NCBI GenBank assembly: GCA_964503475.1
Contig: CAZCZU010000006.1
Location: forward strand, 18,610 to 82,609
Direction: 5' to 3'
DNA length: 64,000 bases
Source of the DNA: an uncultured Zetaproteobacteria bacterium
GTDB taxonomy: Bacteria; Pseudomonadota; Zetaproteobacteria; Mariprofundales; Mariprofundaceae
This document shows, one piece after another, positions 50,086 to 54,886 of this stretch (its first letter is position 1; every line of letters starts with the position of its first letter). Both the position numbers and the translations under genes were made by a program. Below the pieces are notes generated by a model that worked only from the letters and a program-made list of their open reading frames with translations, searched no databases and was not told the origin of the DNA.

Positions 50086-51308
50086 AAGCTGGTTGGCAAG
50101 TTAAGCCGCTGGGTGATATGAGTCAGTTCCAGCGTGGTCTAACTTACTCAAAAAAAGACGAGGCTGACGCATCGGACAACGTTGTGGTGCGAGCTACGAA
50201 TATTGATTTGGAAACAAACCAACTCGATTTTTCAGAGTTGAAATATATCAGTGAAAAAATTGTCGTTCCTGTGGCTAAGAAGCTTAAAAAAGGGTCTTTG
50301 CTCATATGCACGGCGAGTGGCAGCAAAAGCCATTTGGGCAAGGTAGCTTTCATTGATGATGACTATGATTACTCCTTTGGTGGATTCATGGGGATGCTTA
50401 CCCCAAATGAAGACCTACTGCCAAGATACCTGTTTCACCTGATGACATCAGGGGGCTACAAGGATTTTATCGGGCAGCTTGCTGATGGTGCAAATATTAA
50501 TAATTTAAAGTTTGACGACCTGAAGCGATTTCATGTCCCATTCCCACCTATTGCCGAACAGCGGCGGATTGTGGGGATTCTGGATGAGGCATTCGAGGGC
50601 ATTGCCAAGGCGGTGGCCAATGCCGAAGCCAATCTGAAAAACGCCCGCGAACTCTTCGAAAGCCACCTCAACGCTATCTTCTCCAACCCCGGCCCCGACT
50701 GGACGGAGAATAAGTTCGGAGATATTTGCGACATCAAACACGGCTTTGCATTCAAGAGCGAATTCTTCGTCTCCAATAGCAAGCATGTCCTGCTTACTCC
50801 CGGCAATTTCTTTGAAGCTGGTGGATACCGTGATCGAGGTGATAAACAGAAGTTTTATGACGGGCCTATCCCCGATGGTTTTGTCTTGGAAAAAGGCGAT
50901 CTGTTAATTGCTATGACGGAGCAAGCTGCCGGTTTGTTGGGTAGCTCAATCATTATCCCTGAATCGGGTGTTTTTCTTCATAACCAGCGACTCGGATTAG
51001 TTGTGCCAAAAGAAGGTGTGCCTTGGGACAATAAGTTTTTCGCTCTCGTTTTTAATACTAAAGCGATAAGAAAAGCCATTCATGACGGTGCTTCGGGCGT
51101 AAAGGTCAGACACACATCACCCAAAAAGATTGCCAATATTTCGGTTTCGTTCCCTACATCAGTTGACGAACAACAAGCCATTGTCGCCAAGCTCGATAAA
51201 CTGGCTGCGGAGACGAAGCGGCTGGAGGCGATCTACCGGCAGAAGCTGGCGCTGCTGGCCGAGCTGAAGCAATCACTGCTGCACAAGGCTTTCAGCGGGG
51301 AGTTGTAA
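50082..51308 (+). CDS. hsdS: Type I restriction-modification system, specificity subunit HsdS
   Basis: 408 aa with two target-recognition domains separated by a conserved helix (PPIAEQRRIVGILDEAFEGIAKA) and a C-terminal conserved helix (EQQAIVAKLDKLAAE...LKQSLLHKAFSGEL). Overlaps the hsdM stop. Visibly lower GC. Confidence 0.9.
   Translation: MKAGWQVKPLGDMSQFQRGLTYSKKDEADASDNVVVRATNIDLETNQLDFSELKYISEKIVVPVAKKLKKGSLLICTASGSKSHLGKVAFIDDDYDYSFGGFMGMLTPNEDLLPRYLFHLMTSGGYKDFIGQLADGANINNLKFDDLKRFHVPFPPIAEQRRIVGILDEAFEGIAKAVANAEANLKNARELFESHLNAIFSNPGPDWTENKFGDICDIKHGFAFKSEFFVSNSKHVLLTPGNFFEAGGYRDRGDKQKFYDGPIPDGFVLEKGDLLIAMTEQAAGLLGSSIIIPESGVFLHNQRLGLVVPKEGVPWDNKFFALVFNTKAIRKAIHDGASGVKVRHTSPKKIANISVSFPTSVDEQQAIVAKLDKLAAETKRLEAIYRQKLALLAELKQSLLHKAFSGEL
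51264..51308 (+). repeat. Direct repeat copy 1 (the authentic hsdS 3' end)
   Basis: CTGAAGCAATCACTGCTGCACAAGGCTTTCAGCGGGGAGTTGTAA. It matches 52810-52854 with 2 mismatches, and the last 33 nt are identical. Confidence 0.9.
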
Positions 51309-51402
51309 ACCGTCAGTCCGAATTTTCATCCGACGGAAAAGCACAGTTGACGCAAAAAAAAGTATTTACCCGATTGGTAAATGCATTTAATGTACGCACA
51401 CG

Positions 51403-51732
51403 GTGGATGTATTCTTTTCAACCAATGACTTGAAGAAGCTATGCGAGAACAGGCGGGCAATGGAGCGTCAGTTTGGTAGCCCCTGTGCGAAGAAGCTGCG
51501 GCAACGGTTGTCCGATTTGTGCGCTGCCGAAACGCTGACTGATGTAGTGGCAGGCAGGCCACATCCACTGAAAAGAGATCGGCTGGGGCAGTTCGCACTG
51601 GATTTGCATGGCGGAACCCGGCTGGTGTTTGAGAGTGCGGATGATCCGATTCCGCATTTGGATGATGGAAGCATTGCGTGGCATGAGGTTACAAAAGTGC
51701 GCATCGTGTTTATTGGAGATTACCATGACTGA
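51403..51732 (+). CDS. higB: HigB-like (COG3549, plasmid maintenance killer) RelE-fold toxin
   Basis: 109 aa, GTG start. HPLKRDRLGQFALDLHGGTRLVFE...VRIVFIGDYHD matches the HigB-like pattern (HPLKG.R.G.WS.R...WR..F...V....DYH). The toxin-first order and 8-nt overlap with a HigA-type HTH gene also fit. Confidence 0.72.
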   Translation: MDVFFSTNDLKKLCENRRAMERQFGSPCAKKLRQRLSDLCAAETLTDVVAGRPHPLKRDRLGQFALDLHGGTRLVFESADDPIPHLDDGSIAWHEVTKVRIVFIGDYHD

Positions 51733-52807
51733 ACAAGTTGCAACCTTTGCGCCGGATTGGGTTTCCCCTCCCGGCGATACCATTCTGGACTTGCTGGAAG
51801 AGCGCGGCTGGAAGCAGACCGAGTTTGCCGAGCGCATCGGCTTCACCACCAAGCATGTAAATCAGATCATCAACGGCAAATCGGCGATCACTGAAGATGC
51901 GGCCATCCGGCTGGAGCGTGTGCTCGGTAGTACAGCTCGTTTCTGGATGAACCGCGAAAGCCAGTATCGTGAAGCCTTGGCCAGAGAGGCCGAACTGGAA
52001 GCGCTGGAAAACGATGTGGAATGGCTTACGGAAATCCCTGTCACGCACATGGTGAAGTGCGGATGGATGGCCAAATGCAAAAGCAAGCCTGCGCAGGTGG
52101 CCGAGGCGCTGAAGTTTTTCGGTGTTGCTTCGGTTCCTGCCTGGCGCAATCAGTATGCCGCACCACTTGCTGCGTTTCGTGCGAGCGACAAGTTCGAAAA
52201 AAAACCAGGCTATGTTGCAGCATGGCTTCGGTATGGCGAACGCTGTGCCGATGAAATTCGGACAGCGCCTTTCGACAAAGCCAAATTCAGAGCTGCTCTT
52301 GAAGAGCTGCGCGCATTGACCATCGAGTCCGATCCCGATGTGTTCATCCCAGCTTTGGTGGAAAAATGTGCGGCGGCTGGTGTAGCTGTCGTGTTTGCCC
52401 CCGCGCCGACTGGCTGTCCGGCTTCGGGCGCCACCAAGTGGGTCGATTCCGACAAGGCCTTGTTGATGCTCAGCCTGCGTCATAAGACGAATGACCACCT
52501 CTGGTTCTCATTCTTTCACGAGGCTGGGCATTTGCTGATGCATGGAAAGAAGATGCTGTTTATTGAGGGTAATGGTCTGGATGGTAAACAGGAAGATGAA
52601 GCCAATCAGTTTGCCGCCAATCTGCTGATCCCCAAACAATTCGAAGAACGATTGATGTTCGTGGGGCATACAGCGACTGCGATCCGGGCTTTTGCCAAAG
52701 AAGTAGGTGTGGCACCCGGCATTATCGTGGGCCGGATGCAAAACGATGGCCTTCTTGGATGGGGAACACCACTTAACAAATTGAAAGTTAGTTATCAATG
52801 GGCTTGA
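51725..52807 (+). CDS. HigA-type Xre HTH antitoxin domain fused to an ImmA/IrrE (COG2856, peptidase M78) metalloprotease domain
   Basis: Start ATG 51725. The N-terminus PPGDTILDLLEERGWKQTEFAERIGFTTKHVNQIINGKSAITEDAAIRLERVLGSTARFWMN is a HigA-family HTH. The C-terminal part carries HEXXH (FFHEAGHLLMH, codons at 52517-52531). Confidence 0.8.
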   Translation: MTEQVATFAPDWVSPPGDTILDLLEERGWKQTEFAERIGFTTKHVNQIINGKSAITEDAAIRLERVLGSTARFWMNRESQYREALAREAELEALENDVEWLTEIPVTHMVKCGWMAKCKSKPAQVAEALKFFGVASVPAWRNQYAAPLAAFRASDKFEKKPGYVAAWLRYGERCADEIRTAPFDKAKFRAALEELRALTIESDPDVFIPALVEKCAAAGVAVVFAPAPTGCPASGATKWVDSDKALLMLSLRHKTNDHLWFSFFHEAGHLLMHGKKMLFIEGNGLDGKQEDEANQFAANLLIPKQFEERLMFVGHTATAIRAFAKEVGVAPGIIVGRMQNDGLLGWGTPLNKLKVSYQWA

Positions 52808-52809
52808 GA

Positions 52810-54267: not shown

Positions 54268-54736
54268 TGCCTCATCGCTGATTCACGCTTGGGATAATTA
54301 TCCGATCGACAAATTCCCGCCGCTCTGGGAGTGGATGGCCGGGCAAATTCAGAGTGGAGACTTTGTCGTTTCAGAGGTCGCGTTGAAAGAGATCGGCAAC
54401 AAGGCACCCGAATGTGCTACCTGGCTCAAAGAGCAGGAAATCCAGAGGCTTCCTATGTCCAACGCGATTGCGCAGGAGGCCTTACGCATCAAAAGGCTGC
54501 TCGGCATCGAAGACGACCGGTATCATCCCAAGGGTGTGGGAGAAAACGATATCCTGATCATCGCCACCGCCAAAGTGCATGACCATACGCTTGTCACGGA
54601 GGAGGGATTTCAGGCTGTATTCCCCGCCGTGCCCGCCAAGAGTCGAATCCCGACCGTTTGCAACATGGGGGAGGTCCGTGTGGAGTGGTGCAAATTTATC
54701 GATCTTATCAAGGCAAGCGATGCCGTATTTTCCTGA
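54254..54736 (+). CDS. DUF4411-family protein (predicted PIN-like nuclease fold)
   Basis: 160 aa. The N-terminus [25 protein letters not shown] and [21 protein letters not shown] match my recollection of DUF4411/PIN-like acidic motifs. 14-nt overlap with the preceding ImmA gene. Confidence 0.65.
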   Translation: [160 protein letters not shown]

Positions 54737-54790
54737 CCGATTTTTGATGGATACCACCCTCAACATGACCAAAGGCCTGCGAACGGTCGT

Positions 54791-54826
54791 TTTGTGTAAG
54801 GTGAAATCGAAAATACTTTACACAAA
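54791..54826 (+). promoter_or_regulatory. 9-bp inverted repeat upstream of hsdR (candidate operator or RNA hairpin)
   Basis: TTTGTGTAA (54791-54799) and TTACACAAA (54818-54826) are separated by 18 nt, 60 nt upstream of the hsdR ATG. Confidence 0.3.
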
Positions 54827-54886
54827 CGCCCTTGTGACTGGCGTACTTGATACAAACGTACAGATCGTTTCGGACTGCTCTGCCTC

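Follow-up and report, generated by a model that had tools for sequence, protein, structure and literature searches.

Two predicted toxin/regulator gene pairs of known anti-phage kinds in the hsdS-hsdR interval of a type IB restriction-modification operon

The operon and the contents of the hsdS-hsdR interval

The 64,000-nucleotide stretch of DNA analyzed here (the window) carries a complete type I restriction-modification (R-M) operon on its forward strand. The methyltransferase gene hsdM (48613–50085; Pfam N6_Mtase, 1.4e-63, and HsdM_N; PADLOC MTase_I, 1.2e-161), called as a 490-aa form on metagenome contigs, is followed by hsdS (50082–51308), encoding a specificity subunit with two target-recognition domains that matches Pfam Methylase_S in two stretches (5.6e-26). 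The full-length hsdR (54887–57247) belongs to the EcoAI/FtnUII family (type IB): its product matches Pfam ResIII, EcoEI_R_C and HSDR_N and scores 829.7 bits against the NCBIfam equivalog NF046051 (cut-off 550 bits), with residues 2–777 covered. Between hsdS and hsdR lie 3578 bp containing two overlapping gene pairs. A DUF6036 nucleotidyltransferase (NTase)/CopG pair and AbiEi/AbiEii are found downstream, and the operon with both pairs is part of a defense island. G+C is low across hsdS (0.47–0.49) and lower in the island than in its flanks, and an identical locus was found on five independent metagenome contigs. An earlier note on this DNA had placed four same-strand genes, in two overlapping pairs, at the PrrC-like position of a type I operon within a composite defense setting; all of these ORFs are present at the stated coordinates, the operon is intact, and the genes do sit at that position within the island.

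Pair 1 opens with ORF1 (51403–51732, forward strand; 109 aa, GTG start), a HigB-type RelE-fold mRNA endonuclease and the predicted toxin of the pair. ORF1 had no match in Pfam, NCBIfam or PADLOC. It is nevertheless a real gene, with 181 homologues, nearly all of 109 aa. The profile of these homologues matched P. vulgaris HigB in the PDB (E = 7e-4), HigB was the best Foldseek match (probability 1.0, TM 0.57–0.69) of an AF2 model with pLDDT 87, and phrog_3066, annotated as 'toxin of TA system', was matched at 2.9e-10. H54, D106, Y107 and H108 are invariant across the family and R73 nearly so, and these residues are equivalent to H54, R73, D90, Y91 and H92 of HigB. ORF2 (51725–52807, forward strand; 360 aa), which overlaps ORF1 by 8 nt, encodes a HigA-type HTH fused to an M78 (ImmA/IrrE) Zn-peptidase. 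It matches Pfam HTH_3 (4.7e-11) and Peptidase_M78 (5.9e-9), TIGR02607 HigA (53.1 bits; cut-off 47.7) and PADLOC PD-Lambda-2_B (5.5e-28, model positions 60–376 of 402). Its HEAGH motif occupies residues 265–269, and the HEXXH and a downstream E are invariant in 56 of 56 relatives. Upstream of the pair, an inverted repeat at 51358–51388, whose core TTACCCGATTGGTAA (51366–51380) lies 22 nt before the ORF1 start, is a candidate palindromic operator of the form TTACC-N5-GGTAA. Of 77 homologous loci searched for TTACC-N1-7-GGTAA with at most 1 mismatch, 60 have such a site about 20–25 nt ahead of the HigB-like start, as compared with 1% of control windows.

In pair 2, ORF3 (53110–54267, forward strand; 385 aa), an RmrA-like HTH-M78 peptidase fusion and the predicted regulator/antitoxin, overlaps by 14 nt ORF4 (54254–54736, forward strand; 160 aa), a DUF4411 PIN-like (VapC-fold) nuclease and the predicted toxin/effector. 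ORF3 matches Pfam Peptidase_M78 (7.2e-19) and HTH_26, 15 PADLOC RmrA models (best 1.2e-22), PADLOC capP (1.3e-12) and, weakly, capH; its HELGH motif lies at residues 219–223, with the HEXXH and E invariant in 74 of 74 relatives. ORF4 matches Pfam DUF4411 (8.4e-20) and PIN (6.3e-6), has invariant acidic residues at D5, D14, E46, E97, D99 and E117, and yields an AF2 model (pLDDT 95) whose best Foldseek matches are VapC PIN toxins. Neither ORF1 nor ORF4 is recognized by the PADLOC toxin models. Pfam, the PDB profile match and AF2/Foldseek bear out the HigB-like, HTH, M78 and PIN-like assignments of the earlier note, and domains and folds agree with its picture of two unrelated predicted RNase-type toxins, each with its own HTH-M78 (Xre-COG2856) partner.

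Consensus scans placed a candidate terminator-like hairpin with a T-run between the pairs (52977–53002, forward strand), followed by a predicted promoter of pair 2, TGGTCA-18-TATAGT with a TG element (53074–53103, forward strand). The -10 element ends 6 nt upstream of the ORF3 ATG, so the mRNA would be leaderless. A -10-like hexamer, ending mostly 6–9 nt upstream of the HTH-M78 start, is present at 57 of 74 homologous loci versus 2% of controls; the leaderless arrangement occurs at 27 of 35 R-M-embedded and 16 of 18 stand-alone loci, and just 1 of 74 loci has a Shine-Dalgarno-like motif at this start. A conserved palindromic operator was not found around the pair 2 promoter. The 150-nt spacer between ORF4 and hsdR holds an inverted repeat (54791–54826; 12-nt arms, 12-nt spacer) with no T-run after it, and a consensus scan of the window gave no terminator-like site between the two genes.

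Distribution and history of the two pairs

A neighborhood survey of the kind proposed in the earlier note showed strong enrichment in type I operons. Among the 80 closest DUF4411 relatives, a sample biased towards one subfamily, 34 of 54 informative loci (63%) show the order hsdM-hsdS-[HTH-M78 + DUF4411]-hsdR, an association that is far from random. The slot-embedded loci form one type IB lineage, since their HsdR proteins are 62–75% identical to that of the window, and in many of them the DUF4411-to-hsdR spacer is -22 to 50 nt. The same slot also holds other cargo (Fic, MNT nucleotidyltransferase, Schlafen-ATPase, Phd+PIN, VapC or PD-(D/E)XK), and it is empty in some members of the same R-M lineage. 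In the cassette tree, embedded and stand-alone copies of pair 2 are intermingled, and distances between pair 2 cassettes correlate weakly with those between HsdR proteins (Spearman 0.28, versus 0.81 for HsdR and HsdM). Eighteen loci, each with 4 kb or more of sequence on either side, carry pair 2 as a stand-alone unit; its plasmid copies adjoin replication genes, and on two plasmids the DUF4411 gene is split or interrupted by IS21-family elements. Pair 1 has inserted repeatedly into other type I operons, where it separates hsdM from hsdS, and it also occurs within BREX loci, on plasmids, near a reverse-transcriptase gene and next to R-M genes of the MmeI type and of type III.

Pair 1 is bracketed by a 48-nt direct repeat, with 45 of 48 positions identical and a spacing of 1546 bp. 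The first copy (51264–51311, forward strand) is the hsdS 3′ end, stop codon included, and the second (52810–52857, forward strand), which begins 3 nt past the ORF2 stop, is a remnant of that same end. The same hsdS-end signature surrounds unrelated cargo in loci L031, L066 and L073, and a HigB-like gene is absent from all 80 DUF4411 loci surveyed. The duplication and this absence mark pair 1 as a late insertion: it appears to have entered the slot after pair 2, duplicating the last 48 nt of hsdS.

Relationship to described systems

The earlier note had put the locus forward as an undescribed system, and this claim gives way before the matches of ORF2 to PD-Lambda-2_B and of ORF3 to RmrA, and before the literature. 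HTH-DUF955 + DUF4411.1, the exact architecture of pair 2, was predicted to be a three-component TA system (Matelska et al. 2017), a coupling of PIN nucleases with subunits of type I R-M systems was pointed out in the same year, and the idea that toxins within R-M operons couple immunity to suicide dates from 2012. PD-lambda-2 (Vassallo et al. 2022) and RosmerTA (RmrT/RmrA; Millman et al. 2022) have both been shown to provide phage defense and behave as TA systems.

Judged by its sequence, pair 2 is assigned to the RosmerTA type, in which an HTH + Zn-peptidase (M78) gene likewise overlaps a downstream toxin gene. It differs in its toxin, a DUF4411 PIN nuclease matched by no PADLOC RmrT model, where the validated toxins of RosmerTA either depolarize the membrane or have no known function, and in its place within a type IB operon, with hsdR as the next gene. 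NetFlax links an ImmA antitoxin node to PIN-like toxins. Pair 1 shares with the type II TA system HigBA (P. vulgaris Rts1) its toxin-first order, HigB fold, H54/R73/D-Y-H residues, HigA-type HTH and candidate palindromic operator, but ORF2 bears an extension of ~270 residues with the invariant HEXXH M78 peptidase, and ORF1 is only ~20% identical to HigB. As in PD-lambda-2, a HigB-like gene is followed by a HigA-HTH with a C-terminal peptidase; however, the third gene, required for defense in PD-lambda-2, is missing at this locus and beside all 36 homologous pairs checked. CapH/CapP, ImmR/ImmA and DdrO/IrrE similarly place an XRE HTH and an M78 peptidase upstream of putatively controlled genes, and their peptidases sense ssDNA or DNA damage. 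In the window, HTH and peptidase form one polypeptide and the target would be a toxin-like RNase.

A probable cargo bay in a type IB operon and competing readings

We consider it probable that the hsdS-hsdR interval of this type IB operon is a cargo bay that has collected two autonomous toxin/regulator cassettes, each with its own promoter and each of a known anti-phage kind. Autonomy is suggested by the operator or promoter that each pair possesses and by the occurrence of both outside R-M loci. Alongside the gene structures, folds, catalytic residues, operator/promoter motifs, synteny statistics and insertion scar observed here, we infer toxicity, neutralization, trigger and a defense phenotype as follows. 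Cassette 1 would couple a HigB-type ribosome-dependent mRNA endonuclease to a HigA-HTH/M78-peptidase fusion, which probably binds the upstream TTACC-N5-GGTAA palindrome and autoregulates the pair; cassette 2, expressed from its own promoter as a leaderless mRNA, would couple an RmrA-like HTH-M78 fusion to a DUF4411 PIN RNase. In each, the HTH-M78 protein would keep the RNase silent through repression and probably binding as well. An infection signal, by analogy with ImmA, IrrE/PprI and CapP most likely ssDNA or DNA damage, or a phage protein, would switch on the zinc peptidase, and loss of HTH function would free or over-express the RNase and arrest translation.

The strongest alternative, which we regard as possible though not likely, concerns the polarity of pair 1: the HTH-M78 protein ORF2 would be the toxic effector and HigB-like ORF1 its antidote. 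Experiments on PD-lambda-2 gave this result directly, its B protein (HTH-peptidase) being toxic and rescued by HigB-like A (Vassallo et al. 2022), and nearly the whole of ORF2 matches the PD-Lambda-2_B model. That result and the missing third gene both count against the cargo-bay reading, as does the failure of the PADLOC toxin models to recognize ORF1 and ORF4. Nonetheless, the HigB catalytic residues conserved across the ORF1 family argue for an active RNase, suggesting that ORF1 is more than an antidote, and the PD-Lambda-2_A model misses ORF1 even at E = 10, so pair 1 and PD-lambda-2 may not be orthologous.

Somewhat less likely, ORF3 could be mainly a fused, CapH/CapP-like repressor cleavable upon a signal, with the leaderless promoter driving both DUF4411 and hsdR. 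Restriction and RNase would then be co-induced on infection or DNA damage, and hsdR expression may also be delayed after transfer of the operon to a new host. The capP and weak capH matches, the promoter conserved directly at the ORF3 start codon, and the activation by ssDNA of CapP and PprI, which regulate immune or repair operons, are in keeping with this. The short DUF4411-hsdR spacers of many embedded loci leave no room there for a separate hsdR promoter, the window has no terminator-like site before hsdR, and the 63% slot enrichment together with spacers of only 3–50 nt in many loci could mean functional integration with restriction, contrary to the cargo-bay reading. The window, however, has a 150-nt spacer with an inverted repeat, where a separate hsdR promoter may lie; stand-alone copies of pair 2 lack a downstream hsdR, no conserved palindromic operator was found near the pair 2 promoter, and co-transcription is deduced from spacing alone.

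The architecture does not favor PrrC-like wiring, in which the type I complex would hold one or both RNases latent until a phage anti-restriction protein inactivates the complex, and we think it improbable. As in the type IC EcoprrI system, hsdS and hsdR flank an RNase gene and abortive infection may, by analogy, back up restriction; pair 2 synteny is strikingly conserved in one R-M lineage, and pair 1 has repeatedly entered other type I operons. But PrrC, an ABC-ATPase/HEPN protein, lacks an antitoxin and is silenced by the R-M complex, whereas the RNases here are of HigB and PIN types, show no ABC-ATPase or HEPN similarity in Pfam or PADLOC, have dedicated HTH-M78 partners and their own promoter or operator, and also occur far from any R-M genes, and R-M systems of the same lineage function with an empty slot or with other, unrelated cargo. 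Equally doubtful is plain addiction, in which the pairs would stabilize a horizontally acquired island or plasmid by post-segregational killing only, without phage defense: plasmid copies next to replication genes, IS21-interrupted or split DUF4411 genes (consistent with a costly toxin) and the low island G+C fit it, yet tested relatives of both pairs gave phage defense and the contexts are overwhelmingly defense loci.

In the cargo-bay reading, the cassettes would be cargo as opposed to restriction-enzyme subunits, cassette 2 having occupied the slot for longer in this R-M lineage and cassette 1 being a later addition, and together they would provide an abortive-infection layer behind restriction. 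The locus is not a new system; it clearly exemplifies a habit already known for type I operons.

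The type IB operon and the gene pairs in its hsdS-hsdR slot

The six-frame ORF list of the window matched the coordinates that the earlier note had assigned to seven genes, all on the plus strand. These are hsdM (48613-50085; Pfam N6_Mtase/HsdM_N and PADLOC matches), hsdS (50082-51308; Pfam Methylase_S and PADLOC matches), ORF1 (51403-51732) and ORF2 (51725-52807), which overlap by 8 nt and form pair 1, ORF3 (53110-54267) and ORF4 (54254-54736), which overlap by 14 nt and form pair 2, and hsdR (54887-57247). HsdR matched the NCBI EcoAI/FtnUII equivalog NF046051 over residues 2-777 with 829.7 bits, above the cut-off of 550, and since hsdM and hsdS lie in the same operon, the restriction-modification (R-M) genes are classified by sequence as a complete type IB (EcoAI/FtnUII) system. 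The same locus is present, identical, on five independent metagenome contigs. G+C across 48.5-60 kb is below that of the flanks, as expected for an acquired island, and no Rfam family was detected in 48.0-60.6 kb at E≤0.1.

ORF1 matched nothing in Pfam, NCBIfam or PADLOC, the last searched up to E=10. It has 181 homologues, and their length, 109 aa in nearly every case, settles GTG as the start codon. The family alignment keeps H54, D106, Y107 and H108 without exception and R73 in at least 90% of its members; in P. vulgaris HigB the catalytic set is H54, R73, D90, Y91 and H92, and the conserved H54/R73/D106-Y107-H108 of ORF1 are the predicted counterparts of that set. The family profile matched HigB in the PDB (E=7e-4), and a Foldseek search with the AF2 model (pLDDT 87) returned HigB structures as best matches, followed by YoeB and RelK. 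Profile, structure and catalytic residues thus back the HigB-like RelE fold that had been proposed for ORF1. The HigA-type HTH fused to an M78 protease, read from the sequence of ORF2, is likewise borne out: Pfam assigned HTH_3 and Peptidase_M78, the protein passes the HigA model TIGR02607 (53.1 bits; cut-off 47.7), and HEXXH and a downstream glutamate are invariant in all 56 relatives. ORF2 also matched PADLOC PD-Lambda-2_B (PDLC03982) over nearly its full length (5.5e-28).

In 60 of 77 loci the palindrome TTACC-N1-7-GGTAA (at most one mismatch) lies about 20-25 nt ahead of the start of the HigB-like gene, compared with 1% of control windows. The copy in the window (TTACC-N5-GGTAA, 51366-51380) falls within an inverted repeat and is a candidate operator. 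The 302-nt gap between ORF2 and ORF3 (52808-53109) was searched for a third gene like that of PD-lambda-2 and held only a compositionally implausible 65-aa ORF. No conserved third gene accompanies homologous pairs, and the downstream neighbors of 36 of them are heterogeneous.

ORF3 combines an N-terminal HTH with a Peptidase_M78 domain (Pfam, 7.2e-19), and 15 PADLOC RmrA models matched it, the best at 1.2e-22 over positions 2-330 of 363. It was also matched by the PADLOC models capP (1.3e-12) and capH (0.0046); CapH and CapP are a separate HTH repressor and M78 peptidase whose cleavage is stimulated by ssDNA, whereas ORF3 is a single protein in which the two are fused. HEXXH and its E are invariant in 74 of 74 relatives. 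ORF4 is a DUF4411 (PF14367, 8.4e-20)/PIN protein by Pfam, with acidic residues D5, E46, D99 and E117, plus D14 and E97, invariant in the alignment; the structural matches of its AF2 model (pLDDT 95) are VapC toxins. Pfam, the invariant residues and the VapC matches therefore agree with the M78 protease and PIN-like fold first suggested for this pair. PADLOC gave no match to ORF4 even at E=10, and no known RmrT model recognizes it. ORF2 and ORF3 share 28% identity over the peptidase core, which rules them out as recent paralogues.

Upstream of pair 2 the conserved feature is of another kind. In 57 of 74 loci (control, 2%) a hexamer resembling the -10 element (matching TATAAT at 5 positions or more) ends shortly ahead of the HTH-M78 start codon, mostly by 6-9 nt, and a Shine-Dalgarno-like motif preceded that start in only 1 of 74. 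This combination is a sequence signature of a leaderless transcript, and it occurs in 27 of 35 loci embedded in R-M operons and 16 of 18 that stand alone. In the window the promoter-like site is at 53074-53103, preceded by a terminator-like hairpin at 52977-52992. A de novo search upstream of pair 2 found no conserved palindromic operator, only the -10 element being conserved. DUF4411-to-hsdR spacers in the survey loci are often just -22 to 50 nt, and to judge from this spacing alone hsdR is probably read from the cassette promoter in many genomes. The 150-nt gap between ORF4 and hsdR contains an inverted repeat (54791-54826) with 12-nt arms (TTTGTGTAAGGT / ACTTTACACAAA), a 12-nt spacer and no T-run after it, which is possibly an operator or an RNA hairpin with an influence on hsdR expression.

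Neighborhoods of the two pairs and the contents of the slot

Pair 2 was surveyed by searching the DUF4411 alignment against one genome per species, which gave 80 loci, the closest relatives, from many phyla; HMMs built from the window proteins were run on the ORFs called in each. In 78 of the 80 an HTH-M78 gene precedes the DUF4411 gene and overlaps its start. In 34 loci the pair follows hsdM/hsdS and precedes hsdR, all in one orientation, a further 5 truncated loci are consistent with this arrangement, and 18 have no such R-M genes within flanks of at least 4 kb on each side. The R-M-embedded share of informative loci is 34/54 (63%). The pair 1 survey covered 80 metagenomic loci, and a 109-aa gene followed by an overlapping HTH-M78 gene of about 360 aa was found wherever the contig was long enough (at least 75 of 80). 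HsdM is the immediate upstream neighbor in 7 of 43 cases and HsdS the immediate downstream neighbor in 6 of 36, and in six loci (L115, L120, L122, L132, L154 and L167) other type I operons carry pair 1 in the hsdM-hsdS interval, a slot that differs from the hsdS/hsdR position in the window. In several more type I loci pair 1 lies at the operon end; other contexts include BREX, MmeI-type R-M, type III R-M and a reverse-transcriptase gene. The survey that the earlier note had called for showed strong enrichment in type I operons. A HigB-like gene was found in none of the 80 DUF4411 loci, which makes the double arrangement in the window unusual.

Identity to the window in the embedded loci is 62-75% for HsdR and 72-80% for HsdM, which indicates one type IB lineage, but only 45-59% for the cassette. 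Pairwise identities correlate poorly between cassette and HsdR (Spearman 0.28) as against HsdR and HsdM (0.81), and embedded and stand-alone cassettes are interspersed in a neighbor-joining tree, which argues that the cassette has moved in and out of operons and did not simply co-diverge with them. Stand-alone copies occupy mixed contexts, some of them defense-related, and plasmid copies adjoin replication genes. On plasmids of Paraburkholderia and Pseudomonas syringae (L171:7136-9187 and L172:7136-9349) the DUF4411 gene beside its HTH-M78 partner is itself split or truncated, in P. syringae through an IS21-family element. The broken plasmid DUF4411 genes are consistent with selection against an active toxin.

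The slot holds other genes as well. Additional hsdS-hsdR genes in embedded loci encode SoFic-like Fic proteins, HTH-MNT nucleotidyltransferases, a Schlafen/AlbA_2 ATPase, Bro-N and HTH proteins, and the survey loci with extra cargo or toxin-like slot content are L008, L011, L018, L029, L031, L042 and L073. We also sampled eight plasmid-borne type IB operons of the same HsdR lineage (L174-L181; 58-70% identity). Their slots contain Phd/YefM+PIN (two), a PD-(D/E)XK nuclease (two), an ATP-binding protein (one) and a VapC cluster (one); of the remaining two operons, one carries a HicA pair in the hsdM-hsdS interval and the other has nothing, so that hsdS abuts hsdR in only two of the eight. The HTH-M78 + DUF4411 pair was found in none of these eight operons, which marks the cassette as optional and interchangeable in this lineage. 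The slot of this R-M lineage is usually filled by interchangeable toxin-like modules of many kinds.

Insertion scars and adjoining genes

The last 48 nt of hsdS (51264-51311) are repeated at 52810-52857, 3 nt past the ORF2 stop, with 45 of 48 positions identical, and pair 1 can thus be read as a 1546-bp insertion between two copies of the hsdS 3′ end. A second hsdS 3′ end follows the cargo in three survey loci, L031 (577-616/2210-2249; 36/40 identical), L066 (735-774/1801-1840; 34/40) and L073 (7703-7742/8769-8808; 35/40), where the scar flanks unrelated cargo placed directly after hsdS. The pattern, which holds for three unrelated cargo types, suggests that cassettes can be gained by recombination at the conserved end of hsdS. 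Five same-lineage plasmid operons with a filled slot had no hsdS-end duplication, and the corresponding check of the hsdM end in a sixth also found none, showing that the scar is not universal. Relatives of pair 1 in L091 and L110 are flanked by direct repeats of 109 nt and 228 nt.

Directly after hsdR, a gene for a DUF6036-type nucleotidyltransferase (163 aa) overlaps one for a CopG/BrnA-like protein of 84 aa (57449-58191). Both have weak Pfam matches, the PADLOC search gave none, and they are probably a further TA-like pair. A complete AbiEi (PADLOC, 8.3e-82) and AbiEii (Pfam, 2.4e-48) pair lies at 58519-60005 and, with it included, about 11.5 kb holds five defense or TA modules. Three copies of a 197-nt direct repeat, at 57243-57439 (72%), 58208-58404 (reference) and 60008-60204 (97%), bracket these two pairs as if the target had been duplicated upon insertion of each module. 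The repeat corresponds to the 3′ part of a 110-aa minus-strand gene (60009-60341) that has no homologue in any survey locus; it is therefore local, and a link to R-M was rejected. Campbell-type integration of circles with short target homology is a candidate mechanism for these hsdS scars and direct repeats alike. In the window, L001 and L002, a YkuD L,D-transpeptidase gene (minus strand, 45777-47422 of the window) falls into two overlapping ORFs of 260 and 288 aa; in L003 it is unbroken at 548 aa (Scaffold + PG_binding_1 + YkuD), and the split reflects a frameshift variant or else an error of assembly.

Known relatives and the place of the cassettes in the operon

The earlier note regarded the locus as an undescribed system, a claim that comparison with the literature does not sustain. 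PD-lambda-2 is a validated abortive-infection system that acts against lambda. Of its three components, A is HigB-like, B is a HigA-peptidase protein that is toxic unless rescued by A, and C is required for the defense. ORF2 resembles component B (HigA-like HTH + peptidase), but ORF1 is not recognized as PD-Lambda-2_A, with which it has only the general HigB-like fold in common, and the P4-antitoxin-like component C has no counterpart in the ORF2-ORF3 gap. Pair 1 shares with HigBA the ORF1 fold and catalytic residues, the toxin-first order, the HigA-type HTH and a palindromic candidate operator, and differs in the fusion of the antitoxin to M78. RosmerTA is a validated defense TA with a Zn-peptidase antitoxin and variable toxins; ORF3 resembles its RmrA (HTH + Zn-peptidase), whereas ORF4, though adjacent and overlapping, belongs to the DUF4411/PIN class and not to the RmrT models. 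HTH-DUF955 + DUF4411.1 was predicted as a three-component TA system, and PIN-like nucleases were described as transcriptionally coupled to type I subunits, by Matelska et al. (2017); ORF4 is like the DUF4411.1 proteins (VapC group) in its PIN fold, acidic residues and upstream HTH-M78 gene. The PrrC paradigm, the hypothesis of immunity-suicide coupling and 'repeated toxin displacement' in type I and III operons were set out by Makarova et al., and a 2025 review treats accessory-gene toxins as still hypothesized, with only PrrC detailed. The window locus is thus one of known kinds in a known arrangement and not a new system.

The best-supported reading is that two autonomous TA-like abortive-infection cassettes are lodged in the cargo slot. 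On this reading each HTH-M78 protein would regulate its own expression and serve as the antitoxin, with a peptidase that reacts to a signal of infection. The leading candidate for that signal, by analogy with ImmA, IrrE/PprI and CapP, is ssDNA or DNA damage, and translation would stop once the HigB-type and PIN RNases were freed. The toxin polarity of pair 1 is uncertain, given that B is the toxic and A the rescuing component in PD-lambda-2.

An unlikely but more far-reaching alternative is that in this widespread type IB lineage the slot cassette does not ride along passively but works as an accessory of restriction, its HTH-M78-governed leaderless promoter also driving hsdR. A signal of infection or DNA damage sensed by the protease may then induce the restriction subunit and the PIN RNase together; hsdR would be held back while a newly acquired operon establishes methylation, and operons would exchange cargo through recombination at the conserved 3′ end of hsdS. 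Physical wiring of the cassettes to the restriction complex in the manner of PrrC, which their position between hsdS and hsdR recalls, is spoken against by their dedicated partners and separate promoters, by the occurrence of both pairs outside R-M loci and by the interchangeable slot cargo; PrrC is an ABC-ATPase + HEPN anticodon nuclease with no dedicated antitoxin, kept latent by binding to the R-M complex and activated by an anti-restriction factor, whereas the window has HigB and PIN proteins, each with an HTH-M78 partner.

With autonomous cassettes as the preferred reading, regulation of hsdR by the pair 2 promoter is the most interesting remaining possibility. If true, an accessory role would add a new mode of regulation to type I R-M, and immunity-suicide coupling would have a second worked example besides PrrC. 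It has been asked since 2012 whether R-M-embedded toxins cooperate with restriction or merely travel along, and PrrC is the sole worked case. The duplications of the hsdS 3′ end at some insertions hint at how defense islands grow. Together with the architecture shared by 34 species, the locus offers a compact, clonable test bed in which a single type IB enzyme is joined by two unlike RNase cassettes, both of them protease-linked and both equipped with a defined, predicted promoter or operator, and the neighborhood statistics make it a good experimental model.
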